A DNA stretch of 64,000 nt from a virus: the IMG/VR virus record IMGVR_UViG_3300025141_008848, positions 1 through 64,000 of that record. One strand, given 5' to 3'. Every line of letters starts with the position of its first letter. The stretch's first letter is position 1. The position numbers and the translations under genes were made by a program. Shown in pieces: positions 17,669 through 41,021 of the stretch. The notes below the pieces were generated by a model that did not search any database, was not told the DNA's origin, and saw only the letters and a list, made by a program, of their open reading frames with translations.

Positions 17669-17679
17669 TATTCGTACAA

Positions 17680-24625: not shown

Positions 24626-27600
24626 ATGGGAACACAAAATTTAAATAATTTTTATTTCAATAAACTAGATACTAAAATTAATTATAGTCAGTATTATGAT
24701 TTATTTTTAGCGTCTGATGAGAAAGATTTTAATACTGATGTGGTATGGTCTAGTGGGATTACTGCTTATGATGATGGTGACATACTACCAGTATGGATTG
24801 ACCTTAATGATACCAATTGTTCCACACAACCAACCACAACATGTGCATTCCAGTATCCAACAGGAAATACCCCAACCTACTACACCAATACGGGATACAC
24901 ACCTTTTGTCATTTTAAGTAAGAATATTTGGCCTGAAGCAAAATCTATGTGTGACTGTCCTTGGAATAATTATGGGTATACCGCGTCAACCCAATGGTTT
25001 GAAATTTGTGACTCAATATATACAGGTTTGGATAATGGTTTGCTTAATGAAGAGCAACTTTTGGATGGATACTGCCTATACTTAGTGGACTCATTTTCAG
25101 CAGCGGGATGGACCAATGGTACTTTTGACCAACACACATACGATAAAAGGTTAAAAATGAACCAAGTAAAAGCATTCGGACACCCTACTTTAGGAGCCAC
25201 TAATGAATGGTACACAGATACTAGTATTTTAAATAATTTTGATAGCTCTGGTTATTACCAAGACCTACGAGGAGGATTCTATCAAGGATTCTATAAATTA
25301 TATGGTTATCCATATGAGGTACTACCAACCAGACCTAAGAAAGGATGGTCTTTCGAGACTTATTTAAAATTAAATACGATTGGTAGTACTCTTTGTGATG
25401 GTGGTGAAGGATTTATTAATCCTTGTTGTCAACCAGTAGGTGATGAGTCACTTACGTGTGGTGAAAACGGAAATTGTTACAATACTAGTGGGTGGAATAA
25501 TATTAATTTTGTAACAACCGCAACGAGTATTACTTTTGGTTTCGCGACAAATGTCTGTAGTCCCCTAACATCACCACCTAACAGTTTACCCCAACATTTA
25601 TTAAATTATAGTGTAGCGGGACTTAATGTTATTAATGTAGAAAATAGTAATAATGGAGGGTTCTTCTTTTATAAAGGAATCAGAGCAGAGGACAAATATC
25701 AAAACAGAGGAGGACTATCTGCCGATACCCAATTAGATACCTTATCAGCATGTACCACATTAAGTGGGGGGCATTATACAATATCAGGTGTTACAGGTTG
25801 TTGTAATACAGTGGAAAAAGCGGTAAAGCTAACCAACCAAAATAAATCACCAGACCCAAGATATGACGTTTATAGTAATGCTTTTGGTGTGAGATTAACG
25901 GATGACATGAGAATAGGTTATCGAACTATTAGATATACGGGTGAATGTATAACAACGGGGGATACAACTGGTATTGTACCCCCATACTACTACAATGGTC
26001 AGTGGTTGGAAGGTGGAACAACCGGAAACACATGTAATACAGGAAGTAGTTTTTCATGTGGGTATACTATAGAGGAAAGTTATTCGGACCCAATATGTCA
26101 ATTTATAACACAAAGTGGTAATTGTGCGGAGACTTGGATTCAGGTAGATGTTGTTTTTGATAGAAACCTATACCTAGAAGAATGTGAAATATATAATAAT
26201 GGTGGTGTTAATGATTTGGTTAAGATTAGGGTTGATAAGTTTGAGAGGTATGGTAGTCATGTAGCAAATAATGGGGGCCCTTTTGGGTGTCACCCGACAG
26301 AACATGCTCAAGAAGTGAAACCATGTAAAGACCAATACCCTAGGTTCATAGAAGATGCATATTTTGATTTTAATTGTCATGGTGCACAAGTACAAAGTTG
26401 GTTTAATGAAAGAGAGTATAGGTTGGGAACTCTAACCTTCTATGTAAATGGAAGAAGAGTGCATAAAGTAGAAAATTATGAAGAAATAATACCTAGACAA
26501 TTAAATACAAATAAACAAACACAGGTAGGTGTGGCTTATAATATGTCTTGGGGTGGTGGAGCACTAGGACTAAGAGAAAGCCTAATCCAACAAAGACCTT
26601 CACCATGGGACCCATGTGTTATTGACAGTGGTGGGCCTAATCAGACAACCTTCACCAACTTAGATTTAACACCAGATAGAAGATTGATAAGTGATAATTT
26701 TGCTGGTTCATTTGTGGGTGGAATATCACAAATGATGTATTACCTCAAACCACTAAGTGCTGATGAAATATATCATAATTTTTTAATTAACAAAGATAGA
26801 TATAGTTTAATAGACTGTGAAGAATGTAAGAATTGTAATAGTATGTGTGCTGATTGTGACTTACCTGGAGCTATTAATCCACAAGATACGTCACCAGTGG
26901 CTACATATCCATTACACACCTATATTGCTTGTACCGGTGGAAATAATCAAGTTCCTGGATATATAGCAAATGGATTCCCAGTAATTTTTATATCTGACTC
27001 CGGAGGGACTAATAATTACGAAGTGGATTCAGAGGACTACTACCAGATTATAGGGGCTCCAGAGGTAGGTACGGTAGTAAGACGTAATGTTTTACAGAAT
27101 GATGGAGTAACTTATCTACAACAATGTTATGAATATGTGGGAGTACAACAGTTCCCAATACCTGATGTTGGATGGACTTATTTAGTAATTATAGCAGCTC
27201 CTGGTGGGGTTAACGAATTAACTATATTTCCATATAGTAACCCACCTTTTACTGGGGATACTAGATGTAACGATTGTTGTGTGGGTTGTGGTTCTTCATC
27301 TGCACCCGTAGGTCCACCACCACCACCACCGCCACCTCCTAGTCCAAATAGTTGCCCAGCACAAACTACAGTACCACCACCGGGTAATTGTATTGGTAAA
27401 ATATTTGGTGGTGAGTATACAAATATAGTAGGTGCTACTGTAGACTACTTTATAGACCCAGCAAATGGAAACCAGAATGTACTTTTTGGTGACATTTATT
27501 TTGAAATACCAAGAAATCAACCATGTCCACCAATACCAGAATGTAATGGGTTGTTAAATGGAGGTAGTCATATGTTACATCACATAACAACTATCCATGT

Positions 27601-27775
27601 GACTTATTTAGGTGTAACACAAGTATTTACAATGACTTCTACATGGGCAGATGTGGTGGCTGGATTACTAGTACAAGGAGCTCCAGTTACAACAATGATG
27701 GGTTATAACCAAATACTATCCCTTGGAATAAGTGTGTCAGCAGTAAATGGTACTCCATGTACAGGTTGTTCGTAA
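24626..27775 (+). CDS. Large Cys-rich putative virion protein (possible LamG-like beta-sandwich)
   Basis: GWSFETYL...WIQVDVVF...LTFYVNG...FVGGISQMMYY.KPLSADEIYHNF; poly-Pro linker; late motif upstream. Confidence 0.6.
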   Translation: MGTQNLNNFYFNKLDTKINYSQYYDLFLASDEKDFNTDVVWSSGITAYDDGDILPVWIDLNDTNCSTQPTTTCAFQYPTGNTPTYYTNTGYTPFVILSKNIWPEAKSMCDCPWNNYGYTASTQWFEICDSIYTGLDNGLLNEEQLLDGYCLYLVDSFSAAGWTNGTFDQHTYDKRLKMNQVKAFGHPTLGATNEWYTDTSILNNFDSSGYYQDLRGGFYQGFYKLYGYPYEVLPTRPKKGWSFETYLKLNTIGSTLCDGGEGFINPCCQPVGDESLTCGENGNCYNTSGWNNINFVTTATSITFGFATNVCSPLTSPPNSLPQHLLNYSVAGLNVINVENSNNGGFFFYKGIRAEDKYQNRGGLSADTQLDTLSACTTLSGGHYTISGVTGCCNTVEKAVKLTNQNKSPDPRYDVYSNAFGVRLTDDMRIGYRTIRYTGECITTGDTTGIVPPYYYNGQWLEGGTTGNTCNTGSSFSCGYTIEESYSDPICQFITQSGNCAETWIQVDVVFDRNLYLEECEIYNNGGVNDLVKIRVDKFERYGSHVANNGGPFGCHPTEHAQEVKPCKDQYPRFIEDAYFDFNCHGAQVQSWFNEREYRLGTLTFYVNGRRVHKVENYEEIIPRQLNTNKQTQVGVAYNMSWGGGALGLRESLIQQRPSPWDPCVIDSGGPNQTTFTNLDLTPDRRLISDNFAGSFVGGISQMMYYLKPLSADEIYHNFLINKDRYSLIDCEECKNCNSMCADCDLPGAINPQDTSPVATYPLHTYIACTGGNNQVPGYIANGFPVIFISDSGGTNNYEVDSEDYYQIIGAPEVGTVVRRNVLQNDGVTYLQQCYEYVGVQQFPIPDVGWTYLVIIAAPGGVNELTIFPYSNPPFTGDTRCNDCCVGCGSSSAPVGPPPPPPPPPSPNSCPAQTTVPPPGNCIGKIFGGEYTNIVGATVDYFIDPANGNQNVLFGDIYFEIPRNQPCPPIPECNGLLNGGSHMLHHITTIHVTYLGVTQVFTMTSTWADVVAGLLVQGAPVTTMMGYNQILSLGISVSAVNGTPCTGCS
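27314..27340 (+). repeat. CCA-type trinucleotide run encoding poly-proline
   Basis: ccaccaccaccaccaccgccacctcct = P9. Confidence 0.9.
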
Positions 27776-27813
27776 TAACCAATATATATGATATTTATAA
27801 TAAAATAAGATAA

Positions 27814-28209
27814 ATGGAATTTTTTATAAGAAAAAACTCACTAGAACCGATACTTAAAATGCAACTTGTGCAAGATGGTAGAAATGACTTTAAAAGTTTT
27901 CATGACAAGTTAGCAAATTCCAGTATATATTTTTCTATGAAAGACGTAAAAACTGGGATTCCTAAGATATTAAACGCGAAAGCACATATAGTTGCTAAAA
28001 CTACTGTATCGGTTAATTCTCCGGTTGAGTATTACATATATTATAAGTGGAAATCTAGAGATGTTAATAAATCTGGTAGATTTGAAGGACAATTTATCGT
28101 ATATTTTCATGAACAAAATTGTTCAGAACTAATAGTACCAATCCGAGAAGACCTATACATTAATATTTCCGAATCTTTTGTTGGTGCCCCTTGTAACCCA
28201 CCTTGTTAA
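27814..28209 (+). CDS. BppU-N-like (baseplate/fibre attachment) domain protein
   Basis: FFIRKNSLEPILKMQL...IYYKW...D....GRFEGQF.V.F....LIVP....LYINI. Confidence 0.55.
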   Translation: MEFFIRKNSLEPILKMQLVQDGRNDFKSFHDKLANSSIYFSMKDVKTGIPKILNAKAHIVAKTTVSVNSPVEYYIYYKWKSRDVNKSGRFEGQFIVYFHEQNCSELIVPIREDLYINISESFVGAPCNPPC

Positions 28210-28213
28210 TTTA

Positions 28214-28244
28214 TTGATTAGTTAGAGTTTTTTATTTATATTTG
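28214..28244 (+). promoter_or_regulatory. Host-type promoter of the DNA polymerase gene
   Basis: TTGATT-N17-TATATTTG; the downstream box matches the Bacteroidota TAnnTTTG element. Confidence 0.55.
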
Positions 28245-28255
28245 TATGTAATAAT

Positions 28256-30991
28256 ATGCAAGAATTAAGTATAAATAATATGATGGAAAAAGCTACTATA
28301 GAAGAAATAGAACAATTTTTACACGGTAATGACCCCGAACAATATATTGTTGCTTTAGAATATGGGTGGAGAAGTAGTAAAATTTATAAAATAAAAGAAT
28401 ATCCAGACAGAGGTAAAGTTATAGAAACAGACACCTTTATACCTTTTTGCTGGGTTGGTGATTTAAGTAAGAAAAACTTTTATCGGGGAAGTAAACAAGC
28501 ACAGAAAGAAGCCATAACCAAATACGGAATATTAATAGAGAAATTATATTGTGGTGATGATGAAAGATTGGGTGAAGGTCTAACTTATTTAATAAAAACA
28601 ACAAAAACTTATAGAGATTTAGTAAGTTTTTTTAAACAAGGTGGTTTAAATCCTTGGGGTGAAGATAATAGAGACTCGATAATGATTTTACCACCTATAG
28701 AACAATATCTAGTACAAAAAGAAAAAAGGTTATTTAAAGGGTTTGAGGACTATGATGACATACATAGATTTGTTTTTGATTTAGAAACTACATCCTTAAA
28801 TCCAGAAGATGGAAGAATTTTTATGGTCGGAATGAAGGATAACAGGGGTTTTGAAAAAGTAATAGAAGTCGGGGATAATGATTTAGAGGAGTCTGAAGCG
28901 ATATACAAATTTTTTGAAACCATAGAGGAAATAAAACCTAGTATAATAGGGGGGTACAACTCATCTAATTTTGATTGGAACTGGTTATTCAAACGAGCAG
29001 AAATACTACAAATGGATACCACACAATTCAAAACCCTAAATCCAAATGAGGGGTATAAATTTAAGGACAACGTTTTAAAATTGGGAGCGGAAATTGAAAA
29101 CTACCAACAGGTAAAGATATGGGGATGTAATTCCTTAGATATTGCACATGCGGTAAGACGGGCACAAACAATCAATTCAGAAATAAAGAGCTGGGGGTTA
29201 AAGTACATAACTAAGTTCACTAAGTCCGAAAAACCTAATAGGGTGTATGTAGAGGGGGATAAGATAGCTTCAACGTATAGGGAGAATAAAGAGTTTTATT
29301 TAAATGTAGAGAATGGAAAATATAAACCAGTTGGTTCAGAGGGACTATTCAATATAGACAAAAAGTTTCCTGATGTTTATAAAAAAGTTAATGGAGCTAA
29401 AATAGTTGAACAATATCTAATGGATGACTTATGGGAGACCATGGAAGTCGATGAACAATTTAACCAAGCATCTTTTTTATTAGCAAGTATGGTACCAACT
29501 TCTTATGAAAGAGTATCTACAATGGGTACAGCTACTCTTTGGAAAATGTTAATGTTGGCTTGGTCATACCATAAAGGGTTAGCTGTCCCTAAGAAAGACA
29601 GTAAACGACCTTTCGTGGGTGGGTTATCTAGGTTAGTAAAAACTGGATATTCTACAAATGTATTAAAACTAGATTTTAGTTCACTATACCCATCGATACA
29701 ACTTGTACATAATGTTTTTCCAGAATGTGACATTACTGACGCTATGAAAGGTATGTTAAAATATTTTAGGGATACCAGGATTAGATATAAAAATTTAGCT
29801 TCTGAATATTATAACACTGATAAAAAGAAATCAGAATCATTTAGTAGAAAACAATTACCTATTAAAATATTTATTAATTCTATGTTTGGTTCTTTATCTG
29901 CACCACAGGTCTTTCCTTGGGGTGATATGAATATGGGGGAAAAAATAACCTGTACAGCTAGACAATATCTTAGACAAATGGTTATGTTTTTTATGGAAAA
30001 AGGTTATGACCCTTTAGTAATGGACACTGATGGAGTAAACTTTTCTTGTCCTTTAGATGTAGAAGATAGGTCATACATTGGATTAGGAAATAATAGTTTG
30101 GTGATTAAAGATAAGTCTTATCTGGGTAGTGAAGCTGATGTTGCTGAATATAATGATTTATTTATGAGAGGTGAGATGGGGTTAGACACAGATGGACAAT
30201 GGCCTTCATGTATTAACGTAGCAAGAAAAAATTACGCTTTATTAACAGGTGACGGAGTAGTTAAATTAACAGGAAACTCCATTAAATCCAAAAAGATTCA
30301 AGGATATTTAGAAGAATTTATAGATAAAGGATTAACATTGTTATTGGAGGGTAAAGGCGACGAATTTGTTGAGTACTACTACGAATACCTTCAAAAAATA
30401 TATGATAGGGGTGTATTACTTGCAAAAATAGCTAATAAATCTAGAGTTAAACAAACTATAGAATCCTACAAAAAAAGATGTACACAAAGAACAAAAGCTG
30501 GCAATCTTATGGCTAGACAAGCACATATGGAGTTGATTATAAAAAATAATCTACAAGTCTCTTTAGGTGATACAATTTATTATGTTAATAATGGTACAGC
30601 AATGTCACACGGTGACGTCCAGAGGAAAAAGAAAAAAGATGGAACAGAAGAAATTGTTTTAAATTCTTACCTAATATCGGAAAATGATTTAGAGAATGGG
30701 ATGAAGGGGGAGTATAACGTACCAAGATATATAAATGTGTTTAATAAAAGAGTAGAACCACTATTGGTATGTTTTAATACAGAGGTTAGAGAGTCTTTAC
30801 TTAAAAAAAATCCTGAAGACAGAGAATATTACACAAAAACACAGTGTGAGTTACTTAATGGTGTACCTAGAAAAGAAGGTGACCAAGACTCTCTAGAAGA
30901 AATACTTACACTATCATCCGAAGAAAAAGCTTATTGGGAGAGAATGGGTCTTAAAGAAAATTATTTTGTAGAGGAACTAGGACTCCTTTAA
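28256..30991 (+). CDS. polB: Family B DNA polymerase
   Basis: Exo motifs FDLETT, GYNSSNFD, YLMDD; polymerase motifs DFSSLYPS, KIFINSMFG, DTDG. Confidence 0.96.
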   Translation: MQELSINNMMEKATIEEIEQFLHGNDPEQYIVALEYGWRSSKIYKIKEYPDRGKVIETDTFIPFCWVGDLSKKNFYRGSKQAQKEAITKYGILIEKLYCGDDERLGEGLTYLIKTTKTYRDLVSFFKQGGLNPWGEDNRDSIMILPPIEQYLVQKEKRLFKGFEDYDDIHRFVFDLETTSLNPEDGRIFMVGMKDNRGFEKVIEVGDNDLEESEAIYKFFETIEEIKPSIIGGYNSSNFDWNWLFKRAEILQMDTTQFKTLNPNEGYKFKDNVLKLGAEIENYQQVKIWGCNSLDIAHAVRRAQTINSEIKSWGLKYITKFTKSEKPNRVYVEGDKIASTYRENKEFYLNVENGKYKPVGSEGLFNIDKKFPDVYKKVNGAKIVEQYLMDDLWETMEVDEQFNQASFLLASMVPTSYERVSTMGTATLWKMLMLAWSYHKGLAVPKKDSKRPFVGGLSRLVKTGYSTNVLKLDFSSLYPSIQLVHNVFPECDITDAMKGMLKYFRDTRIRYKNLASEYYNTDKKKSESFSRKQLPIKIFINSMFGSLSAPQVFPWGDMNMGEKITCTARQYLRQMVMFFMEKGYDPLVMDTDGVNFSCPLDVEDRSYIGLGNNSLVIKDKSYLGSEADVAEYNDLFMRGEMGLDTDGQWPSCINVARKNYALLTGDGVVKLTGNSIKSKKIQGYLEEFIDKGLTLLLEGKGDEFVEYYYEYLQKIYDRGVLLAKIANKSRVKQTIESYKKRCTQRTKAGNLMARQAHMELIIKNNLQVSLGDTIYYVNNGTAMSHGDVQRKKKKDGTEEIVLNSYLISENDLENGMKGEYNVPRYINVFNKRVEPLLVCFNTEVRESLLKKNPEDREYYTKTQCELLNGVPRKEGDQDSLEEILTLSSEEKAYWERMGLKENYFVEELGLL

Positions 30992-32026
30992 TCCATCAGA
31001 ACTAACAATAACCCAGGTAGACAACTCATCCACAAAAACAAATTCAACACAACTATCACCACTTAAACTGAGTGATTCCCATTTATTATCTATTAATCCT
31101 ATGTCTGGTAAAATATCTACATTAGATAAAGATTTTATCTTTATTTTTTTATCTTTTTGTGAGTTTAAAGTTATTGTACATTCTTTAGTTATAACTAATA
31201 AATATTCACCATCCGTAGTGTGATTAGAACTAATAACTTTAGTTTTTATGTCAGTTTCTACTGTAGAATCATAATCTACTTTAATACCATCCTTATACAA
31301 TCCCTGTAATAAACTTAATAATGCGACTGAAAGCAGGTTATATCGAATATTGTCAGGTCTACCCAAACTATCGTAGACCACCAACTCACCAAAACCTAAC
31401 GATTCTAATTCTTCAGCTATCATACCAAATCCATCACCACCAGTCTCTATATATTTAAAAAAGTAAGTTCTAAGGTCTAATAATTTTTTATACCTTTGTG
31501 AGTTTATAGGACGTAAATTATTTTTATATCTTCGAGAGGAAGAAGAGCCTCTAACAACATTACCAAACTCGTCTATTTGTAAATCTACATTTCCACTAGT
31601 AACAGCATCTAATAATAAACCTAATTTATCTATTTGTAGGGTACTTGCACTTATCCCTGGATTTGTCGTACCCCCACTTAATGGTGGTGTAGGGGTTTTT
31701 CCTATAGATAAAACTGCTGTATACCCTGTTACTGCAGAAAATGGAGTAATTGTTACTACCGAAGAAGCTGAGGTTGAGGAATACGGTCCCACCATAAATG
31801 TGTATCCAGTAGTTCCAGAGTTATAAACACAACCAATACCACACTGTTCTTCCCAATCCTTACACTTATATACCATAAATTCACCACAACCAGTCAATCC
31901 CGCACCTACGGTACATGCCGAACCTATATTTACCGTCTGTTCAAATATAGAGGAACCCGAAAAAGTGGCAGTACCACCAGTCTGTCTTAATTGTCTATTA
32001 TAATCTACTTTAGTATAAAAAGCCAT
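30977..32026 (-). CDS. Fibre-like virion protein with internal S74 intramolecular chaperone domain
   Basis: SSRRYKNNL...FKY...GMIAEEL...LVVYD...PDNIRY; Thr/Gly-rich N-terminus. Confidence 0.7.
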   Translation of the reverse strand: MAFYTKVDYNRQLRQTGGTATFSGSSIFEQTVNIGSACTVGAGLTGCGEFMVYKCKDWEEQCGIGCVYNSGTTGYTFMVGPYSSTSASSVVTITPFSAVTGYTAVLSIGKTPTPPLSGGTTNPGISASTLQIDKLGLLLDAVTSGNVDLQIDEFGNVVRGSSSSRRYKNNLRPINSQRYKKLLDLRTYFFKYIETGGDGFGMIAEELESLGFGELVVYDSLGRPDNIRYNLLSVALLSLLQGLYKDGIKVDYDSTVETDIKTKVISSNHTTDGEYLLVITKECTITLNSQKDKKIKIKSLSNVDILPDIGLIDNKWESLSLSGDSCVEFVFVDELSTWVIVSSDGLKES

Positions 32027-32027
32027 T

Positions 32028-33164
32028 CTATATTACAAATATTGTACCAGGATTCATTGGTCGATAACCTAACGATTTATTTAAACTTTCCGCTTCTAGA
32101 GCTTTTCTTTCTAACATTTTATCATTTCTTAATCTTTCTAATCTAGTCATTAATTCTTCTACTAATTTGGCTATTTCATCTTTAGATTCACTAAGTAAAT
32201 CTGCATACTCCATTGTTAATTCTGAATCCGGTGTTTTAAGGTTACCACTAAATTTACCTCTAACCCTACCTAACATTTCTTTTCCTTTTGCGAAAAAGTA
32301 ACGTCTTACCCATGATTGGGCAGGAGGATTAAGTTCAGTAAAAGTCATTTCATCTAATGTGACATCACTAGGTAATAATATAATATCTTTATTCGCGTCT
32401 AAACAATCATCTCTATTTTCAGGTCCCGAGTCGTAGTACCAATACCAAACCCGGTGTTGATGAGTCATAATATTACCAAAGTCAAATCTACCACCAGGAA
32501 CATTATATAAATGAACATATTTTGGTCCGTGTACACCACCTGGTCCAGCAGTAACTCTGTACGTCATCTCACCACCAATCATACGATTTTTTATATTTCT
32601 ATCCTGCATCCTCAACAAGACATCAAAAGCGGGCATTAAGAAATAAGAACCTTGTATTCCCATCTGAGCCATACCTCCACCGCCCCCTAAGCCCATACCA
32701 CCACCCATACCACCAAAACCACCTAGGAAAGGGTCAATAAAGGACTCATTTAGCTCGGCTCTAGAGTACCAAAGTAATTCATTAAGTTCTCTACCTGCAG
32801 GAATTTCATATATTTGAGTGTCAGCACTAAGAGTAATATAGTCTTGTTTTAGTTGGTACGGTCCACCAGCTTGTAAACCAACAATTTTAGAATAAGCATA
32901 AGTAAAGGAGGTTTCAAAACTCAAGTCTCTTGTTAAGAAGGCACTTGTTAAAGATATAACATCTAGGTCTTGACCATATAACGAAGACCACTGATTTTCT
33001 ATTAACCAGTCCTGCACATACTGACCATAATCAAGTATTGCCAATTCAATAGCTGTATCTAACATCTCATCTTCAAGTTCTACCCCACGTAATGGTGCAC
33101 CTAAGGTATGTCTAAGTTGGGTAAATAATTTCTCTCTTTTTGCTGGGTCAATTGTTGCTGGCAT
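32028..33164 (-). CDS. Neck protein (T4 gp13-like)
   Basis: LGAPLRGVELEDEML; WVRRYFFAKGKEMLGRVRGKF. Confidence 0.75.
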   Translation of the reverse strand: MPATIDPAKREKLFTQLRHTLGAPLRGVELEDEMLDTAIELAILDYGQYVQDWLIENQWSSLYGQDLDVISLTSAFLTRDLSFETSFTYAYSKIVGLQAGGPYQLKQDYITLSADTQIYEIPAGRELNELLWYSRAELNESFIDPFLGGFGGMGGGMGLGGGGGMAQMGIQGSYFLMPAFDVLLRMQDRNIKNRMIGGEMTYRVTAGPGGVHGPKYVHLYNVPGGRFDFGNIMTHQHRVWYWYYDSGPENRDDCLDANKDIILLPSDVTLDEMTFTELNPPAQSWVRRYFFAKGKEMLGRVRGKFSGNLKTPDSELTMEYADLLSESKDEIAKLVEELMTRLERLRNDKMLERKALEAESLNKSLGYRPMNPGTIFVI

Positions 33165-33203
33165 AATATATCCTTTCTATATAAATACTTGGAAGTTGGT
33201 ATT

Positions 33204-33227: not shown

Positions 33228-33252
33228 CATAAAATATGTGTTTAAATGAGGA

Positions 33253-33837
33253 TTATTTAGTATATGAATTAAGTATTGACTTTAATTCTGTAACGGCTTT
33301 CTTTTTACCGTCTGCAAGTTCTTTATCGGTAAGTGCAGGTTCGGACTTTTCCCACGCAGTGGTAGAAACCTTTTTAATTCTGGTAACAGCTGTCGAAAGG
33401 TTACTAAGCATATCAGCAAAACTAACATTTTTTTGTTCTTTAATAACTCGTTCTACAATTCTTTTTAAAGTACCTTCAGTAACCTTAACAACCTTACCTT
33501 CTCTTACACCTTGTAATGCGTTATACATTTTTCCATGACCTTCAGATTGTTCATTTTTCTTTTCTACCTCTTTTGATTTTTTTTCTTCTTTATCAGTCAT
33601 TTCTTCGTCAGTCATATCTTCATAGATGTCTTCTATATGACGAGCAGCGGTTTTAATTTTCTTTAAATCACTAAATGATAAGGTTTGGTCACCAGTCTTA
33701 TGACCTACTAATAAAGATTTAAGGTTTTTTAAAGCTTTATAAGCTTTTTTTAATTCTGATTTAATATCTCCTTTAGCCTCAGTTAAAGTAACCAACCGGC
33801 TTCTAAGTTGTTTTTTCGTAAATTCTTTTTTACCCAT
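33253..33837 (-). CDS. Charged hypothetical protein (putative head-internal)
   Basis: Start moved to MGKKEF (33837), 16 nt after a TATTTATA motif; contains VKVTEGTLKRIVERVIKEQ. Confidence 0.65.
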   Translation of the reverse strand: MGKKEFTKKQLRSRLVTLTEAKGDIKSELKKAYKALKNLKSLLVGHKTGDQTLSFSDLKKIKTAARHIEDIYEDMTDEEMTDKEEKKSKEVEKKNEQSEGHGKMYNALQGVREGKVVKVTEGTLKRIVERVIKEQKNVSFADMLSNLSTAVTRIKKVSTTAWEKSEPALTDKELADGKKKAVTELKSILNSYTK

Positions 33838-33877
33838 TTCAGTTTGTTTATATATAAATATAAGGAAAAGTAGGTTT

Positions 33878-35611
33878 CTACAACCCACCAAGTATTTCAC
33901 CCAAAATATCCGCTTCATTTATATTATCACCCATAACAGTATCTATAACGGACTTCTTTTTATTAACTAATTCGTAGATTGTTCTTTCTATGGTGTTGTC
34001 ATAAATTGGGTATATACACGATACTTTTTTATCTTGACCTATTCTAAATGCTCGGTCTTCACATTGGGACATATCAGAAGGGACAAAGGAAAGGTCGTTG
34101 AATATTACCACTTCTGCTGAGGTTAATGTTATACCCACTCCCGCTGCTTTGACATTACCTATAAAAACCTTTATTTTATCATCATTTTGAAATCGGTCCA
34201 CACTTTCTTGTCTGTCTTCTTTTTTCATAGTACCATTAAGAACTACAGATTCTTTTTTATATTTCTGGTGCAGAGTCATTAAAGGTTCTGTAAAATTAGT
34301 AAAAACAATAACTTTTTTATCTTGTTGTAGACATTGGTCTATTAGTTGTGTTGTCTCCTTAACTTTTTCTAACGCAATTATCTGTCTAACTTTCATTAGT
34401 TTAGCTAGTTGTATAGACAAACCACTACCTCTATGTTGTCGACGCCAGTCAAGATATTCTCCCATCTCATCTTCGTAGGATTTGGATTTAAGCTCCATAT
34501 AGATTGGGGTAATTATTTTATCGGGCAAGTCTAGTACATCCTCCTTCAATCTCCTCAAGACCTTATCGTTAGTTTTATCTCTAAGTTCTTCCAAGTTAGT
34601 CGCACCAAAAGTTAACCATATTTTCCTATAACCCCTAAAAATCTGTTTACCATCACAGTATCGTCTAACATAATTAATCCAATTATTAGCAACTCTTGAC
34701 CCAACCAGCTTTAATAAATTATAATAATTCATAGGTCTAGATGTCATAGGTGTACCTGATAATAACCATAACCTATCTATTTTACTTGTAAGATTATTAA
34801 CTAATTTAGTTCTTTGTGCTTTACCATTAGAAACATAATGTGCTTCATCTATTATAACTAAGTCAAATTTAGCATCTAATATGTGTGTTTTTTTGTCGGA
34901 ATCTTTAGGGAGAGAATGAAAATTCTTTAATATATCATAATTTATAATAACATATTCCCCATCTTCCCATTTTTTACCTTCCACAATACCTACTTCTACA
35001 TTACTATAATTTTCTATTTCTCTTTTCCAATTAACCTTTAATGAAGCGGGACATATTATTAATACTTTTTTTAATTTAAGATTGATACTAGCCATAATAG
35101 CAGAGCTAGTTTTACCTAAACCCATATCATCAGCCAATATATATTTTTTATTAGAAACTAATTTAATGATAGCTTTTTTTTGATGCTCAAATGGTGGACG
35201 ATGTGAAAAAGCTGTAAAATTAACATCTAAATCAGGATTTTCTCTAGGTACAATTTGGTTCTTAGGGACCCAGAAAGAGTTAAGAGGGTGAGAATCTATC
35301 ACCTTACCCCAGACATGATAAGCTTTTTCAGTTTCAGATAAAAGTTTTTCTATCCAGATAGATTTAGGTGGGGTCTGTAGAAATTTAGTTGACATAAGCT
35401 CTTTAGATAAGTAATCGTCTATTTCCATCCACAACCTAACAATTTTAGGTTTTTCATTATAATTGTTATTAATATAGTCTGATTGGGCCCTTGTCAATGT
35501 CAAAGATTTACTATTAAGCATGTTATTTTTAAGACCTATAATATAGTTATTGGCCCCATCATAATTAACTAATGTATTTTTAGCTTTAATCTCTGAAGGA
35601 AAATTTTCCAT
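33878..35611 (-). CDS. SNF2-family (HARP/SMARCAL1-like) helicase/ATPase
   Basis: LADDMGLGKT, DEAH, LSGTP, GVGITL, QCEDRAFRIGQ. Confidence 0.93.
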   Translation of the reverse strand: MENFPSEIKAKNTLVNYDGANNYIIGLKNNMLNSKSLTLTRAQSDYINNNYNEKPKIVRLWMEIDDYLSKELMSTKFLQTPPKSIWIEKLLSETEKAYHVWGKVIDSHPLNSFWVPKNQIVPRENPDLDVNFTAFSHRPPFEHQKKAIIKLVSNKKYILADDMGLGKTSSAIMASINLKLKKVLIICPASLKVNWKREIENYSNVEVGIVEGKKWEDGEYVIINYDILKNFHSLPKDSDKKTHILDAKFDLVIIDEAHYVSNGKAQRTKLVNNLTSKIDRLWLLSGTPMTSRPMNYYNLLKLVGSRVANNWINYVRRYCDGKQIFRGYRKIWLTFGATNLEELRDKTNDKVLRRLKEDVLDLPDKIITPIYMELKSKSYEDEMGEYLDWRRQHRGSGLSIQLAKLMKVRQIIALEKVKETTQLIDQCLQQDKKVIVFTNFTEPLMTLHQKYKKESVVLNGTMKKEDRQESVDRFQNDDKIKVFIGNVKAAGVGITLTSAEVVIFNDLSFVPSDMSQCEDRAFRIGQDKKVSCIYPIYDNTIERTIYELVNKKKSVIDTVMGDNINEADILGEILGGL

Positions 35612-35616
35612 ATTAA

Positions 35617-35645
35617 AATATAATAAAAAGAGAAAAGAAAGACAA
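35617..35645 (-). promoter_or_regulatory. Housekeeping-sigma-type promoter of the helicase gene
   Basis: TTGTCT-N17-TATATT just before ATG 35611. Confidence 0.5.
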
Positions 35646-35673
35646 ATTGTATTTATAATAAAAGGAAGGACCT

Positions 35674-36189
35674 ATGACTAATAAAAAAATACCGATTACA
35701 AGAATATCTAAATTTTTTAGTTCCGAAGATTTTCAACTAGAACAAGATGTGGGCATGGAGTGGTTACATGGTGATATGCATTTTACTATGGTTTTATTTA
35801 GGGTAGATAAAAAATTATCTGATGTTGATGATGTATATGGGGAGTCGAATGTTGAAGAAATTAGATATAAGCCCCCGGTAGAGTTTAATGCTTATGTAAA
35901 AATTGACCCACCTAACAATAAAAGTTATGGTGGTGGATTAGTTAATCAGATGGAACCAGGCAATATGACTTTAGGTGTGTACAAAAAACATTTAGAAGAA
36001 TTAGATATCGACATAAATTATGGTGACTATATTGGGTACCCAGAAAATGAAACTACAATGAGATATTATGTGGTCGCAAATGATGGAAGAGTGACTTCAG
36101 ATATTAAACACACTATAGGTGGGTATAAAGCTTTCTACAGAACAATAGTATGTTCGTGGGTTAGTGAAAATGAATTTAGAGGAGTGTAA
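35674..36189 (+). CDS. Putative head-closure/neck protein (gp14-like)
   Basis: DDVYGES...PPVEF...DINYGDYI; lies before the tail-terminator and sheath genes. Confidence 0.55.
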   Translation: MTNKKIPITRISKFFSSEDFQLEQDVGMEWLHGDMHFTMVLFRVDKKLSDVDDVYGESNVEEIRYKPPVEFNAYVKIDPPNNKSYGGGLVNQMEPGNMTLGVYKKHLEELDIDINYGDYIGYPENETTMRYYVVANDGRVTSDIKHTIGGYKAFYRTIVCSWVSENEFRGV

Positions 36190-37268
36190 TGGGAATACCT
36201 AAAAAAATAAAAAAAACCTTAAATATAGCACCAGGACCTATACAAGGGCACTACCCAACAGGGTACAATGGGATAACAACGCCCTATAGACGAAAGGAGT
36301 TAGCAGAGTTCATTACTGACGATGGAACTTATTTACCTAAATCAGTTTTACATGCTGACCTTGATAAAGGAATGTTAGATTTTACACAAGAGCAATTAAA
36401 AACAGTAGCTAATGGAAAAAAAGTTAATGTTATTGACCGTATTCTCACCCTACAAAGGTGGGCAGAATTTGCTCAAACATGGAAATTTGCTAATCAGGAT
36501 AAAAATGTAGAGTTACCATTTATTGTTGTGGTGAGAAAACCAGATGTACAATACGGAACCAATCCCGCTTTACAATATACTATACCCGATAGAAAACAAT
36601 TTCATTATGCTAAGGTACCTACTTGGGACGGCAATAGAAAAGGGTACGACGTCTATACTATACCACAACCGGTCCCAGTAGATATTACATATGATGTGAA
36701 AATAATATGTAATAGAATGAGAGAATTAAATAATTTTAATAGGGTGGTACTCCAAAAGTTCACTTCTAGACAAGCATATACTTTTGTTAAAGGTCATTAT
36801 ATTCCTATAGTATTAAGTTCTATTGGGGACGAAAGTCAGATAGATACAGAGGAAAGAAGATACTATCAACAGAATTACCAATTCCAATTACAAGGGTTTT
36901 TACTAGATGAGGAAGAGTTTGAAGTTAAACCAGCTATTAGTAGGAGTTTAACGATGTTTGGGGTAGACGAAAAGGAAAGAAAAAAAGAACAAAAGAATAT
37001 TGGAGAAGATAACGCCACAAAAACAAATAGAAAATTAACATTCCAGGCGGGTGTTACAGTAATTGTTATATCATATAAGGATAAGGTGAATGTTTCAGCT
37101 TTAAGAATTAAAAATATAGCATCTTATTCTCTTTCTGTTAATGCTATAAATTTTGGTCAGTCATATGACCCGATTATGATTAATCCTGGTGATATTTTAC
37201 AAGTAACGATTGTAAAACAAAATCCTGGTGTGGCTATGTTAACTTTACAAGAAATCCTAATCGGTTAA
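36189..37268 (+). CDS. Putative tail terminator/sheath stabiliser (gp15-like)
   Basis: LPFIVVVR...PVPVDITYDVKI...MRELN...FQLQGFL; gene order. Confidence 0.55.
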   Translation: MGIPKKIKKTLNIAPGPIQGHYPTGYNGITTPYRRKELAEFITDDGTYLPKSVLHADLDKGMLDFTQEQLKTVANGKKVNVIDRILTLQRWAEFAQTWKFANQDKNVELPFIVVVRKPDVQYGTNPALQYTIPDRKQFHYAKVPTWDGNRKGYDVYTIPQPVPVDITYDVKIICNRMRELNNFNRVVLQKFTSRQAYTFVKGHYIPIVLSSIGDESQIDTEERRYYQQNYQFQLQGFLLDEEEFEVKPAISRSLTMFGVDEKERKKEQKNIGEDNATKTNRKLTFQAGVTVIVISYKDKVNVSALRIKNIASYSLSVNAINFGQSYDPIMINPGDILQVTIVKQNPGVAMLTLQEILIG

Positions 37269-37436
37269 ATCCTCACCATATATATCTTTAGTGGTTTTAC
37301 AATTTTCCTTTATTAAGTGTTCTATGAATGCAAACATCTTTAACCCTTTCTTATTACAATAGACTTTAAGTTGGGTATGTGATTTAACACTTATCTTTAA
37401 ATTTTTTATTTTTGGTTTTTTATCTGTGGTGGGCAT
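37257..37436 (-). CDS. Small ribbon-helix-helix-like DNA-binding protein (59 aa; not in the ORF track)
   Basis: Manual translation MPTTDKKPKIKNLKISVKSHTQLKVYCNKKGLKMFAFIEHLIKENCKTTKDIYGEDLTD*. Confidence 0.7.
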   Translation of the reverse strand: MPTTDKKPKIKNLKISVKSHTQLKVYCNKKGLKMFAFIEHLIKENCKTTKDIYGEDLTD

Positions 37437-37469
37437 TACAGGGTATATTTTTAATATAACTATGGTATT

Positions 37470-37499
37470 GTATGAAAAAAGTATGAAAATTTACATACT
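37470..37499. promoter_or_regulatory. Candidate operator
   Basis: Direct repeat GTATGAAAA (37470, 37481) and inverted repeat AGTATG-N8-CATACT (37480-37499) between the divergent RHH and sheath genes. Confidence 0.5.
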
Positions 37500-37592
37500 A
37501 ACCCTAAAATATAGCTATTTACTACGTAACTTTTGTCAATACCACATGTATTTATTATAAAAGAAAATAAAATATCTTAAAAATTATAAAAC

Positions 37593-40500
37593 ATGGCAGA
37601 CGGTAATAAAATATTTGTTTCTCCAGGGGTATATACTTCAGAGAAAGATTTAACATTTGTAGCACAAAGTGTAGGTGTTACTACATTAGGTATAGTTGGA
37701 GAAACCTTAAAGGGTCCAGCTTTTGAACCAATATACATTCAATCATATGATGATTTTACAACTAGGTTTGGTGGGACTTCACCAATGACTTATGTGGATT
37801 CACAAATACCTAAATACGAATTAGGTTATATAGCTAAATCGTATTTAAGTCAATCAAACCAATTATTTGTAACAAGAGTATTGGGGATAAGTGGTTATGA
37901 CGCAGGACCATCATGGAGTGTTGTTACAATAGGAGAATTAGACGGCACTACTTTAACAGGTAGTACATCCGCAACCACCCAACTAACACTACCATTCTTT
38001 ATTCCTTTAACAGGGACAAATGGTACTATTGGGGCTAATTTTTCTGCGAATGATGCTTTACACGATGATTTCTTCAGACAACTTCCTGGAACCATAGCGA
38101 GTCATTTTTACAGTGAACCATATCAAACGGGTGATACAACAGCAGATAATGTGAACACTCCGTTTACAATGAATAATGGTACCACACTACCTAATTTACA
38201 AACATCTTTTATAAATTTCTTTAACGGAGGATACTCCCCAACAACAGTAGCATCAGGGTCAACTTGTTATTCAGGAGGACCAGTTTATTATTCTTCTACT
38301 ACTTTAGCTTCATGGAGTTGTCCACTAGTATACCAATACGGTTGTATACCTGAAGCAGTTGAATCAGCAGCAACAGGTACTACAATTGCAACATTTTCTG
38401 CTGAAACATCAGCACTAACAGTAACTAATGTACTATCCACTGAATGTACTGATTTTTCATCTTACAAAAATGATTCGTGGTATTATGGGTTATTCGATTA
38501 TGTAGATGCGGAATGTTGTACCGGTACAACATTTAGTGGGATATCTTATCAACTATGGTTAAGTGGTGGATGTAATAATGGTGGTGGTCTTAACGCTTGT
38601 ACAGGGGTTACAGGAACAACATCAGCTGGAACTGAAGTATATTCTGGTAATGTTATTGTAGATTTAATTACTTATACTGGTGTTGAACCGTACACCGACT
38701 ATGATGGTATGGTAGTATTAACATTAAGGTCTAGAGGACTTAGTACTAAGGCTTCGGGTGGACCGGTATATGCTTTAACAGCAGACACGGCGAGTTTTGA
38801 TTGTACTGGAGATTATGCTAAAGTATTAACAAATCCATTTGCTTCATTTGGGGTAAGTGCAACCACTACCGGTGGTGATGTATATACATTTAAAACTTCT
38901 ATGGCGAACACTTCACAAGATTATGTGTCAAGAGTGTTTGGTAGAAGTCCATTTGATAAAAAAGAATCTGAGGTTCCTTTATTTGTTGAGGAGACTTACC
39001 CAGCACTTTTAACTGATGGTTGGAAGAAAGGAAAAATTAGAGGGTTACAATGTTGTTTTAAATATTTACCTTCTGCACGAGACATAACTAATACAAATAC
39101 CATTGCGTGGTATATGAGAGAATGGACAACACCAGAAACACCATGGATTGTTTCCGAGTTACAAGGTACGGACATATTCAGATTATTTAAATTCATCTCA
39201 ATATCTGATGGTACAGCAGCAAATAGAGAAATTAAAGTTTCTATAATTAACTTATCATTCGAAAGAGGGGAGTTCGATGTAATCGTAAGAGATTTCTATG
39301 ATACAGACGCAAACCCACAAGTTTTAGAAAAATACACTAGATGTAGCTTAGACCCAACAAAAGTATCCTTTATAGGTAGAAAAATTGGTACTTCTACAGG
39401 GGAATTTGAATTAAAGTCTAAATATACAATGTTATATCTAGGTGAAGGATTGTTGGATGGTGTATTTAAGAATTCATTACCAGCTGGTTTTGAAGGATAT
39501 AGATTTAGAGGGTATGATTGCCCAGTTAATCCACGTATTATTTATAAAACAAAATATTATAAAGCAGGAGAAGTAGTGTATGACCCAGCTTTCGGTAGTG
39601 GTGTAGGTAATAACCAAACTATAAGTGGGGGTGATAAGATAAGTAAAGTTTATCTAGGAGTCTCAAATAGTATAGGAGCTGCTTATGACCCAGATTTCTT
39701 TGAATATAAAGGAAAACAAGTACCTAGTACATTATGTACAGCAGTGGAAGGTGGTGACTGGAATGTAATAACTCCTGGTTTCCACATGGATTCAGGAGCT
39801 ACAGTAGTGTTGGGTGGAACAGGAACTTATTTAGATTGGTCAGGAACTACATTAAATGGTAAACAAGTATTTGATTGTGGTGCCGGACAATTTAATCACG
39901 AACCAACTTTAAGTACTGAACCGTACAAACAACTTAGAAGTCGTAAATTTACAGTTGCTCCACATGGTGGGTTTGATGGTTGGGATATTTACAGAAAAAC
40001 AAGAACAAATTCTGACGATTATAGAATGGGACTAAGCGGATTCTTAGCAGGACAATGTGCTGGAACATCGGAATTCCCACAAGCAACTGGAAAGGGTACC
40101 TTTAAAAAATTAAGTAGTACAGAAGCTAACACAGATTATTTTGCTTATTTAAGAGGTATTAATACATTCAGTAATCCTGAAGCGGTAAATATTAATGTGT
40201 TTACCACACCTGGTATTGATTATGTGGATAATTTAGGTCTAGTAAATGAAACTATTGATATGGTAGAAACTGATAGAGCGGATTCATTATATGTAGTAAC
40301 GACACCAGACTACAATATGTTTGTTTCTAGTACGACAGACCCAGCTAACCAAATAACACCAGAAGAAGCGGTAGATAATATGGAAGACTCACTGATAGAC
40401 TCTAATTATACCGCTACGTATTATCCTTGGGTACAAGTTAGAGATACGGCAAATAACAAACAAATATTTATACCACCAACAGCGGAGGTAATGAGAAATA

Positions 40501-41021
40501 TAGCTTTAACCGATAATATTGCATTCCCATGGTTCGCATCTGCGGGATATACTAGAGGTATTGTGAACGCTATAAAAGCTAGAAAGAAACTTACATTAGA
40601 TGAAAGAGATACTTTATATGTGGGAAGACTTAATCCTATAGCAACATTTAGTGATGTCGGACCAATTATTTGGGGTAATAAAACACTACAAATTAGAGAA
40701 TCAGCACTAGATAGAATAAATGTTAGAAGATTATTATTACAAACTAGAAAGTTAATCTCAGCAGTATCAATTAGACTACTATTTGAACAAAATGATGATG
40801 TAGTAAGACAACAATTCTTAGACTTAGTTAACCCAATTCTAGACTCTATTAGAAGAGATAGAGGTTTAACTGACTTTAGAGTGGTACTTTCTAATGACCC
40901 AGAGGAGATAGATAGAAATGAAATGAATGGTAAAATCTACATAAAACCAACAAGAGCATTAGAATACATATTCGTTGAATTCTTGATAACACCTACTGGT
41001 GCATCTTTTGAGGATGTATAG
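37593..41021 (+). CDS. Contractile tail sheath protein with large insertions
   Basis: SPGVYTSEKD, GPAFEP, YTATYYPWV, PWFASAGYTRG, NPIATF, WGNKT, RINVRRL, FEQND, IKPTRALEYI. Confidence 0.95.
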   Translation: MADGNKIFVSPGVYTSEKDLTFVAQSVGVTTLGIVGETLKGPAFEPIYIQSYDDFTTRFGGTSPMTYVDSQIPKYELGYIAKSYLSQSNQLFVTRVLGISGYDAGPSWSVVTIGELDGTTLTGSTSATTQLTLPFFIPLTGTNGTIGANFSANDALHDDFFRQLPGTIASHFYSEPYQTGDTTADNVNTPFTMNNGTTLPNLQTSFINFFNGGYSPTTVASGSTCYSGGPVYYSSTTLASWSCPLVYQYGCIPEAVESAATGTTIATFSAETSALTVTNVLSTECTDFSSYKNDSWYYGLFDYVDAECCTGTTFSGISYQLWLSGGCNNGGGLNACTGVTGTTSAGTEVYSGNVIVDLITYTGVEPYTDYDGMVVLTLRSRGLSTKASGGPVYALTADTASFDCTGDYAKVLTNPFASFGVSATTTGGDVYTFKTSMANTSQDYVSRVFGRSPFDKKESEVPLFVEETYPALLTDGWKKGKIRGLQCCFKYLPSARDITNTNTIAWYMREWTTPETPWIVSELQGTDIFRLFKFISISDGTAANREIKVSIINLSFERGEFDVIVRDFYDTDANPQVLEKYTRCSLDPTKVSFIGRKIGTSTGEFELKSKYTMLYLGEGLLDGVFKNSLPAGFEGYRFRGYDCPVNPRIIYKTKYYKAGEVVYDPAFGSGVGNNQTISGGDKISKVYLGVSNSIGAAYDPDFFEYKGKQVPSTLCTAVEGGDWNVITPGFHMDSGATVVLGGTGTYLDWSGTTLNGKQVFDCGAGQFNHEPTLSTEPYKQLRSRKFTVAPHGGFDGWDIYRKTRTNSDDYRMGLSGFLAGQCAGTSEFPQATGKGTFKKLSSTEANTDYFAYLRGINTFSNPEAVNINVFTTPGIDYVDNLGLVNETIDMVETDRADSLYVVTTPDYNMFVSSTTDPANQITPEEAVDNMEDSLIDSNYTATYYPWVQVRDTANNKQIFIPPTAEVMRNIALTDNIAFPWFASAGYTRGIVNAIKARKKLTLDERDTLYVGRLNPIATFSDVGPIIWGNKTLQIRESALDRINVRRLLLQTRKLISAVSIRLLFEQNDDVVRQQFLDLVNPILDSIRRDRGLTDFRVVLSNDPEEIDRNEMNGKIYIKPTRALEYIFVEFLITPTGASFEDV

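Follow-up and report, generated by a model that had tools for sequence, protein, structure and literature searches.

Gene content of the window and a recurrent tetrapeptide

The window analyzed here is the first 64 kb (64,000 nucleotides) of the 128,462-bp IMG/VR virus record IMGVR_UViG_3300025141_008848, which is a fragment of a jumbo phage genome (34% complete by the CheckV estimate). The 54 predicted proteins of the window, which has a G+C content of 31 to 36%, were annotated by Pfam and PHROGs and in part by NCBIfam, and the Pfam and PHROGs matches divide it into three gene blocks, the first of which is a glycan locus on the minus strand (379 to 21836). A middle block includes the DNA polymerase gene polB, and the last block encodes the tail sheath, tube, and baseplate. 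Head genes are not on the source record. The subject of this report is a tetrapeptide, [ST][GA]x[ST], that recurs in the sheath and in two other window proteins, named here 24626 and 30977 by the lower coordinates of their genes (Table 1). The initial annotation had listed such peptides in these three proteins and in proteins 51598 and 52993, and had proposed that they are sequons for O-glycosylation by the adjacent glycan locus. Every listed peptide was found at the gene named for it.

The motif was counted in all 54 window proteins and compared with 2000 whole-protein shuffles. The 24626 protein contained 14 sites where 3.2 were expected (z 6.0), the 30977 protein 11 where 1.9 were expected (z 6.9), and the sheath 19 where 6.3 were expected (z 5.4), an enrichment in each case well beyond what the Ser, Thr, and Gly composition provides. 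Because outer domains are locally rich in these residues, shuffling was also confined to blocks of 20, 30, or 50 residues; the expected counts became about 4.0, 2.4, and 7.7, respectively, and z remained at 5.2 to 5.6 for 24626, 6.0 to 6.4 for 30977, and 4.4 to 4.8 for the sheath. Ten alternative orders or spacings of the same residue classes gave a z of 2.8 at most in the three carriers. Since the excess survives block shuffling and the permuted orders are flat, it lies in the order of the residues and not in their composition. Protein 51598 was a borderline carrier (3 versus 0.8 to 1.0, p 0.045 to 0.08; 3 versus 0.7, z 2.9, for the motif as refined below), and the proposal of 52993 as a carrier was not borne out (9 versus 6.1, p 0.17; 5 versus 3.8 for the refined motif). 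None of the other 49 window proteins reached a p of <0.05 with whole-protein shuffles. The motif was indeed rare in polB (3 versus 1.2), the helicase (2 versus 0.6), UvsX (1 versus 0.6), and the tail tube (0), and the refined motif had no site in polB, the helicase, or the inner baseplate proteins 46513 and 48530. The impression that it is concentrated in the likely outward-facing parts of the tail, namely the sheath insertion, the fibers, and the 24626 protein, was also supported.

Refinement and specificity of the motif

The form of the motif was examined in a pooled set of 13 large tail and fiber proteins from the whole record, which were picked partly by enrichment, so that the pooled figures in this section are biased accordingly. 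When all patterns of the type "ab.c" were scanned, SA.T (33 versus 5.5), SG.T (32 versus 8.8), and TG.T (36 versus 11.0) took the first three ranks and TA.T (17 versus 6.8) the fifth. The position before the motif prefers hydrophobic residues, with Phe enriched 2.4-fold, and Thr occupies position +3 in 118 of the 156 matches. The initial annotation had allowed either Ser or Thr at the last position; it is Thr that counts, as [ST][GA]xT was found 118 times against 32.2 expected (3.7-fold) and [ST][GA]xS 38 times against 27.0 (merely 1.4-fold). A preceding hydrophobic residue raised the enrichment of the Thr form to 5.3-fold (54 versus 10.2). The sharper motif is hydrophobic-[Ser/Thr]-[Gly/Ala]-x-Thr.

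The excess largely or wholly disappears when any one position, or the spacing, is altered. No enrichment was seen in the 13 proteins for [NDQ][GA]xT (25 versus 26.9, 0.93-fold), [ST][CVP]xT (32 versus 31.7, 1.0-fold), [ST][NDS]xT (34 versus 45.2, 0.75-fold), [ST][GA]x[NDQ] (50 versus 49.8, 1.0-fold), or [ST][GA]x[VIL] (45 versus 57.2, 0.79-fold), and other spacings gave 40 to 55 matches against about 32 (1.3- to 1.7-fold). The frequencies of the component pairs predict 51 sites, and 118 were found (2.3-fold). This specificity is enzyme-like.

Other origins of the signal were considered and rejected. Codon choice at motif sites roughly follows the background for Thr, Gly, and Ala as well as for Ser, whose two codon families both occur, and the signal therefore lies at the protein level and is not a DNA word. 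Host-type sequons were flat or below expectation (D[ST][AILVMT], 43 versus 42.9; N-x-S/T, 139 versus 148; D/E-x-N-x-S/T, 9 versus 14.9); the first of these figures also upholds the statement that the motif is distinct from the D-(S/T)-x motif of the Bacteroidota, which is unenriched in the 13 carriers. No homology was detected among the carriers, in line with the unrelated folds that had been supposed: BLAST paired only two of 17 large structural proteins, 100764 and 101599, through a short match at their N-termini. Hidden homologous repeats were rejected at the BLAST level, and the distances between sites have no domain period. The one regularity in spacing is a distance of 3 (n = 11), which represents two G/A-x-T triplets in succession (T-G-x-T-G-x-T type). 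The motif is real, order specific, and acts at the level of the protein.

Distribution over the record

A selection-free comparison was made by dividing the proteins of at least 300 aa of the record by place only. All 28 such proteins between 24.6 and 105.1 kb together had 125 refined motifs versus 44.0 expected (z 12.7), and the 18 remaining ones had 1 versus 4.8. Five of the carriers lie beyond the window (Table 1).

The sheath is of the T4 type, with a conserved C-terminal sheath domain, a tube gene downstream, and 28 to 35% identity to the sheaths of a Klebsiella phage and of Microcystis phage Mel-JY01. Its motif-rich insertion spans about residues 105 to 480 (nucleotides 37905 to 39032), which we take to occupy the topological place of the outward-facing domains of T4 gp18. 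Of its 19 sites, 15 lie in residues 122 to 425 of the insertion, 2 at 734 and 750, and 2 in the C-terminal core; the refined motif numbers 16 versus 4.6. The full-length structure model was poor (mean predicted local distance difference test score [pLDDT] of 47.9), its usable part being about residues 105 to 630, and its top Foldseek matches were phage sheaths, matched over the sheath cores only. In the parts modeled with moderate confidence, sites are predicted in strands at 126, 315, and 422 and in a helix at 258/261, and those at 179, 221, 269, 310, 337, and 396 fall in loops or low-confidence stretches.

The 24626 protein, which we infer to be a virion protein, contains 4% cysteine, a run of prolines near residues 897 to 906, and no motif site in residues of about 500 to 720; ESM Atlas clusters (score 0.88 to 0.89) suggest a candidate LamG/ConA-like lectin domain. 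In the 30977 short fiber, 10 of the 11 sites lie in residues 16 to 130, N-terminal to the chaperone domain (refined motif, 8 versus 1.2). Its gene and polB, which run on opposite strands (polB on the plus strand), overlap by 15 nt at their 3' ends (30977 to 30991). In the last block, a gene for an FKBP-type peptidyl-prolyl isomerase (62409 to 62843, plus strand) lies between the genes for UvsX and the 5'-3' exonuclease; in a complete relative (G001, described below) the homologous gene is placed elsewhere, at 71 kb.

Table 1. Features of the window and motif carriers of the source record (counts are observed versus expected)
Feature	Coordinates	Strand	Description	Basis
Glycan island, variable part	379..18465	-	18 soluble genes	Pfam/PHROGs/NCBIfam
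Anchor glycosyltransferase 1, GT-A	18459..19556	-	Glyco_tranf_2_5	PF13712, E 3e-28
Anchor glycosyltransferase 2, GT-B fold, GT4-like	20598..21836	-	412 aa	phrog_7162, E 2e-39
Middle block			Small unknown genes; 24626-27775; polB; 30977-32026; gp13-like neck protein; SNF2 helicase	Pfam/PHROGs
24626 protein, motif carrier	24626..27775	+	1049 aa, cysteine-rich, poly-Pro linker; refined motif 11 vs 2.3	
30977 short fiber, motif carrier	30977..32026	-	349 aa; Peptidase_S74 at residues 163-216	PF13884, E 2e-6
Last block			Sheath 37593-41021; tube; baseplate genes to 2119-aa protein; gp32; UvsX; FKBP; 5'-3' exonuclease	Pfam/PHROGs
Tail sheath, motif carrier	37593..41021	+	1142 aa; sheath domain at residues 850-1139	PF17482 + phrog_23
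Tail tube gene	44904-45392			PHROGs
51598 protein, borderline carrier	51598..52680	+	360 aa, baseplate module	
76947-85922	76947-85922 (beyond window)		2991 aa, 8.5% cysteine; refined motif 19 vs 6.8	
87756	beyond window, 70-105 kb		Refined motif 7 vs 2.5	
90929	beyond window, 70-105 kb		Refined motif 10 vs 2.3	
94720	beyond window, 70-105 kb		Refined motif 19 vs 4.1	
98350	beyond window, 70-105 kb		Refined motif 9 vs 2.4	

Conservation of motif density in relatives

Relatives of the sheath were recovered from 74 viral-contig loci at 49 to 96% identity, and 40 distinct full-length sheaths were scored. Thirty-nine of these had a z of at least 2.29, the sole exception having 9 sites versus 5.3. 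In an alignment of the 40 sheaths, 823 sites are spread over 114 columns: 6 columns carry the motif in at least 75% of the sheaths (213 sites), 19 carry it in 25 to 75% (307 sites), and 89 carry it in fewer than 25% (303 sites), and part of this scatter is possibly alignment error in the gappy sheath insertion. At the conserved sites Ser and Thr interchange, as do Gly and Ala, and the x position varies. Within the insertion, motif Ser/Thr residues keep their class in 63% of cases versus 50% for other Ser/Thr, and motif Gly/Ala residues in 60% versus 47%; the x position is conserved below the average (27% versus 43% identity). Two conserved sites lie in the sheath core, one at 1056 (S-A-V-[A/S], with the first three residues invariant and the last being Ser in 17 of the 40 sheaths) and one at 1135 (T-G-A-S, invariant).

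All 59 distinct homologues of the 24626 protein had a z of >2.5 (889 versus 192 sites when pooled), as did all nine homologues of the 30977 protein, and the motif was flat in the glycosyltransferases (GTs), polB, and other neighbors in loci anchored on the 412-aa GT (see below). The 98350 family, with members in three genomes at 26 to 38% BLAST identity to the copy in the record, had 9, 9, and 11 sites, of which about 3 aligned positions were common. The density of the motif is kept while its positions turn over.

In a complete 304-kb relative (G001), 29 tail-module proteins of at least 350 aa, picked by place, contained 168 sites versus 72.0, and 37 proteins from the rest of the genome contained 21 versus 17.5. 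Its major capsid protein was weakly enriched (5 versus 2.0, z 2.2). The initial annotation had envisaged a glycan shield coating the whole particle; that extent is not supported, as the tube and inner baseplate have no sites, the signal in the G001 capsid is weak, and head genes are absent from the record. G001 also encodes, at 182293 to 188095 and 259142 to 262249, three proteins of about 960 to 1035 aa with strong internal repeats, in which TP.P, GG.C, and TI.G are 4 to 7 times enriched; two of the three fall below the composition expectation for [ST][GA]x[ST] (5 versus 16.4 and 12 versus 25.2).

The size of the insertion is variable across the lineage (about 940 to 1375 aa). In a distant, syntenic relative (G006), the sheath (941 aa; 69197 to 72022 of contig G006:C1) lacks most of it, with window residues of about 150 to 366 unmatched, and the 98350 homologue is enriched (11 versus 1.6).

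Enrichment as a general trait of fibers and sheaths was rejected. Among 25 T4 proteins tested, a z of >2.5 was reached solely by gp29 and UvsW, neither of which is a fiber or a sheath, and counts were 3 versus 7.8 for gp34, 11 versus 7.7 for gp37, 3 versus 3.8 for gp12, 3 versus 2.9 for gp18, and 1 versus 3.6 for Hoc, in which Ser and Thr make up 24% of residues. Mel-JY01, the closest cultured relative by sheath (35% identity), had an unenriched sheath (4 versus 3.7) and unenriched giant baseplate proteins, and the 412-aa GT is absent from it. Two sheaths, candidate paralogues, of the 484-kb uncultured phage LR756508 had 0 versus 1.1 and 5 versus 2.2 sites. These are read from adjacent 824-aa open reading frames (ORFs) of LR756508.1 (locus L182) at 19305 to 21779 and 22794 to 25268; the tblastn match to the window sheath consists of two joined pieces at 20001 to 23057 of the locus, and overlaps the second ORF by about 260 nt.

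A variable glycan island anchored by two glycosyltransferases

The glycan locus of about 21 kb encodes three GT11-like, one GT17-like, three GT2, and one GT2_5 transferase, together with the phrog_7162 GT; Pfam recognizes eight GT domains in the window besides the latter. Its variable part holds nucleotide-sugar epimerases and dehydratases, a UDP-glucose-dehydrogenase-like gene, methyltransferases, the 3 GT11-like, 1 GT17-like, and 2 of the GT2 transferases, a DUF5672 gene, and unknowns. An 857-aa protein fuses an epimerase/dehydratase to a C-methyltransferase (7540 to 10113, minus strand). An RfbH-like DegT-family enzyme dependent on pyridoxal phosphate (15577 to 16878, minus strand) matched NCBIfam NF011936 with an E value of 1e-108 and 364 bits, which is under the cutoff of 423; RfbH makes 3,6-dideoxyhexoses. 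A NadE-like NAD synthase gene also lies within the sugar locus (2347 to 3123, minus strand), and by analogy we presume that it may encode a sugar amidotransferase.

No membrane segment was detected by a 19-residue Kyte-Doolittle scan of every ORF before 33253, and no Pfam match to a flippase (Wzx), polymerase (Wzy), ligase, oligosaccharyltransferase, or polyprenyl-phosphate transferase was found among the window proteins. The neighboring locus is indeed a glycan locus, soluble and transferase rich, and with no membrane segment and no flippase or ligase family it looks built for a soluble cytoplasmic acceptor.

The island ends in two GTs that we call anchors (Table 1). Gene conservation was counted over 80 loci for which the 412-aa GT served as the anchor. 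Homologues of the GT2_5 enzyme (18459) were present in 66 of the 80 loci, of the dUTPase that lies between the two anchor GTs in 72, and of the 24626 protein, which is the most consistently enriched carrier and adjoins the anchors, in 74. Any other island gene had a homologue in at most 19 of the 80, and the island is therefore hypervariable and anchored by the two GTs. G001 has an island in the same place that is smaller and has a different content (GDP-mannose dehydratase, epimerase, two FkbM methyltransferases, a Fringe-like GT, and a fused GT2_5+GT2 protein), with an exonuclease alongside the dUTPase. The anchor GTs are present in every lineage member whose contig spans the region. No lineage member without the GTs was found; the one relative that gave no GT match (G004) is a 102-kb fragment whose contig is calculated to end before the expected GT position. 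A GT11 family search gave no match in five relatives, nor in the control genomes, and is uninformative. A possible connection of the GTs to late genes was sought through the T4-type late promoter TATAAATA; this was unenriched (19 versus 19.5 expected), which is likewise uninformative.

The GT-A enzyme (18459 to 19556) is 49.5% identical to part of the fused G001 protein and is a candidate initiating enzyme. The 412-aa GT had no match to a Pfam GT family and none below an E value of 0.9 among Protein Data Bank (PDB) sequences. Its AlphaFold2 (AF2) model (pLDDT 89.4) has a GT-B fold of two Rossmann domains, and the top Foldseek match was GlgM (1.5e-15, TM score 0.64), followed by MshA, PglA, BshA, and PimA with E values to 1e-9. 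GT4-like retaining GT-B enzymes carry an E-x7-E signature in the C-terminal domain. In the 412-aa GT the single E-x7-E begins at residue 378, within the last helices. The expected place of the second Glu is taken by E315, which is invariant and lies in "...VIEAG...", and no Glu occurs 8 residues before it. Likeness of this predicted fold to GT4 members does not tell what the acceptor is.

The 412-aa GT matches 202 viral stretches. Distant homologues occur in phi92-like coliphages (25%) and in a 735-kb phage (33%), LR756501, whose sheath was unmatched by the sheath query used. Among 185,579 species genomes only 4 loci were found, all on contigs of metagenome-assembled genomes (MAGs), and by these sequence matches the enzyme appears to be almost confined to this phage lineage. 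Three of the MAG loci were examined, the fourth (L184) being a contig of 3 kb: the phage-like contigs L186 and L187 show synteny with the window, and L185 has in common with it the GT and one methyltransferase-like match only. Bacterial homologues adjoining motif-rich proteins were sought, and none was seen among these 3 of the 4 MAG contigs. L186 (G006:C1; 248,233 bp, from a Flavobacteriaceae MAG bin) keeps polB, the 24626-like gene, small genes, the 412-aa GT, dUTPase, and PhoH in synteny; in all likelihood this is the genome of a jumbo phage that was placed in a bacterial bin, and the binning gives a weak hint at a Flavobacteriaceae host.

Comparison with known glycosylation systems

To our knowledge, glycosylation of the particle of tailed phages is known for mycobacteriophages only. 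No description of a sequon on phage particle proteins or of tail-sheath glycosylation was found in the literature searched, most subscription journals lying outside it. In mycobacteriophages Che8, Corndog, and Myrna (Freeman et al. 2023), virion O-glycosylation by phage-encoded GTs is described in the excerpts of PMC12619734 and PMC12363180, and glycans are demonstrated at the C-termini of capsid and tail-tube subunits (PMC12619734). As far as these excerpts go, the likeness lies in phage GT genes near structural genes and in a proposed cytoplasmic decoration of the phage's own particle (PMC12619734, PMC12363180). In this phage, unlike in the mycobacteriophages, the glycans are hypothetical; its tube has no sites, and the candidate sites are internal tetrapeptides scattered over the sheath insertion and fibers with no terminal extension. 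The glycan locus here, at about 21 kb and hypervariable, is a further difference.

SgtA of Clostridioides difficile, a soluble enzyme with GT-A and tetratricopeptide repeat (TPR) domains, is reported in the excerpted text of PMC7157674 to place GlcNAc, as the first sugar, onto Thr of the GPT repeats of the spore protein BclA3, and it is a precedent for a soluble GT-A that glycosylates Thr after Gly-x. In both systems, so far as that text covers SgtA (PMC7157674), the transferase gene adjoins the gene of its substrate, which in this phage is a putative one. The motif found here has [GA]-x-T at its core, with a strong preference for Thr at +3. BclA3 has long collagen-like GPT arrays, whereas the sites described here are isolated apart from 11 cases of paired triplets, and SgtA accepts Ser for Thr in peptides, whereas Ser at +3 is barely enriched here (PMC7157674, same text). 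Unlike SgtA, no window protein has a TPR (Pfam, E ≤ 1e-3), and GT-A domains (PF00535 and PF13712) are present.

The general O-glycosylation motif of the Bacteroidota is D-(S/T)-(A/I/L/V/M/T). It resembles the present motif in being short and in placing a small or aliphatic residue after Ser/Thr. Bacteroidota O-glycosylation is periplasmic and proceeds from a lipid-linked glycan with a flippase, whereas phage particles assemble in the cytoplasm; unlike in that system, the D-(S/T)-x motif is flat in the carriers and the island has no membrane protein, flippase, polymerase, or ligase. Virus-encoded soluble sugar-nucleotide pathways and GTs build rare-sugar glycans on the surface proteins of chlorovirus capsids and mimivirus fibrils without recourse to host machinery, and in chloroviruses the glycans are N-linked to atypical sites. 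The phage described here likewise has its own sugar-nucleotide and GT genes, but chloroviruses and mimivirus infect eukaryotes, and their structural proteins are unrelated. Finally, the "moraphages," aquatic jumbo phages with genomes to 307 kb and predicted Bacteroidota hosts, have four glycosyltransferase orthogroups in their core, according to the excerpted text of PMC12619734, and may be the same lineage as this phage.

A possible sequon for phage-encoded O-glycosylation

Our favored explanation, which we hold tentatively and with somewhat less than even confidence, is that the motif would be a sequon by which phage-encoded enzymes O-glycosylate the outward-facing parts of the tail in the cytoplasm. 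Under this scheme hydrophobic-[Ser/Thr]-[Gly/Ala]-x-Thr would be an address on the sheath insertion, the fibers, and the 24626 protein of a jumbo myovirus. A phage-encoded soluble GT would read the motif in the cytoplasm and put the first sugar onto its hydroxyl, and the other soluble transferases of the island would extend that sugar with rare sugars. The likeliest reader would be one of the two conserved enzymes, the GT-A (18459 to 19556) or the GT-B (20598 to 21836), and each phage strain would owe a glycan of its own to the fast-changing remainder of the island. We infer that the motif is modified and that a sugar is what it receives, and we likewise infer which enzyme reads it. Still more cautiously we put forward a broader proposal: the aquatic jumbo myoviruses of a whole lineage would have a cytoplasmic, sequon-directed O-glycosylation system of their own, in which a phage transferase reads the motif on folded or folding tail proteins and a strain-variable set of soluble enzymes builds rare-sugar glycans that give the tails "serotypes."

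Several observations weigh against the sequon hypothesis. G006 keeps both anchor GTs, yet its sheath is unenriched (5 versus 2.4), as is the 1067-aa protein in its 24626 slot (2 versus 3.4). The negative controls (T4, Mel-JY01, and LR756508) are distant and have shorter sheaths, and non-virion proteins do not clearly avoid the motif, with 40 versus 47.5 sites in the source record (G000) and 21 versus 17.5 in G001. The 412-aa GT has its nearest solved folds among enzymes whose substrates are small molecules, lipids, or lipid-linked sugars. The predicted contexts of the sheath sites are mixed. The position of the dUTPase, and a ThyA-family gene of G001 (E value 4e-60) that would encode a thymidylate synthase or hydroxymethylase, mean that the island could instead serve DNA modification. 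The lineage has no cultured member.

The main rival to a sequon is a lineage-specific structural idiom, in which the motif builds strand ends or tight turns in beta-rich outer domains and nothing reads or modifies it. A few positionally conserved sites, among them the two in the sheath core (1056 and 1135), would fit such an idiom, as would the hydrophobic residue at -1, the beta-branched Thr at +3, the several sites within or at the ends of predicted strands, and the unenriched sheath of G006 beside its retained GTs; however, the carriers have no detectable homology and no repeat period, most sites are not conserved in position though their density is, and the mixed predicted contexts do not point to a single structural element. 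The fibers and sheaths of T4 and Mel-JY01 have similar compositions and no enrichment, and the equivalence of Gly and Ala argues against a turn that needs the positive phi angle of glycine. On balance we consider the structural explanation unlikely. Composition or low complexity of the Ser/Thr/Gly/Ala-rich outer domains is a far poorer account, and we think it very improbable that the motif is such an artifact: Ser, Thr, and Gly are abundant in the carriers, and the "hg" and "gxh" pairs are mildly enriched (z 1.4 to 3.1), but shuffling in blocks as small as 20 residues leaves z at 4.4 to 6.4 with permuted orders flat, Ser cannot replace Thr at +3, the count exceeds the pair-based expectation 2.3-fold, and both Hoc, with its 24% Ser plus Thr, and gp34 of T4 fall below expectation (1 versus 3.6 and 3 versus 7.8).

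The motif might also be a tag for some other factor, such as a phosphate, acyl, or ADP-ribose modification, an assembly chaperone, or a decoration protein, with the island serving DNA or the host envelope. Sharp specificity and restriction to tail and fiber proteins would fit any sequence-reading factor, and a role in DNA would agree with the dUTPase between the conserved GTs, joined in G001 by an exonuclease, and with the G001 ThyA-family gene if it is a hydroxymethylase. The phi92-like coliphage homologues of the GT, among the matches listed, are annotated merely as glycosyltransferase or hypothetical protein. We nonetheless regard this alternative as improbable, as no kinase, acyltransferase, or ADP-ribosyltransferase was found among the 54 window proteins by Pfam or PHROGs, and the deoxy, amino, and C-methyl chemistry, the three fucosyltransferase-like GTs, and the variability between strains suggest a surface glycan. 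Since the island proteins are all soluble, a host-envelope product would need the export machinery of the host.

Implications

If the motif is instead structural, it would be a striking lineage-specific sequence rule that is relevant to the annotation of these proteins. If the sequon hypothesis is correct, phage self-glycosylation would have its first defined sequon, as well as its first example beyond the mycobacteriophages. Glycosylated phage proteins would then be predictable from sequence, and a short peptide tag with a soluble transferase would be usable for glyco-engineering. A true sequon would also explain why abundant aquatic jumbo phages have sugar islands that are large and change fast, and it would be relevant to the means by which these phages escape sticking, grazing, or recognition by the host.

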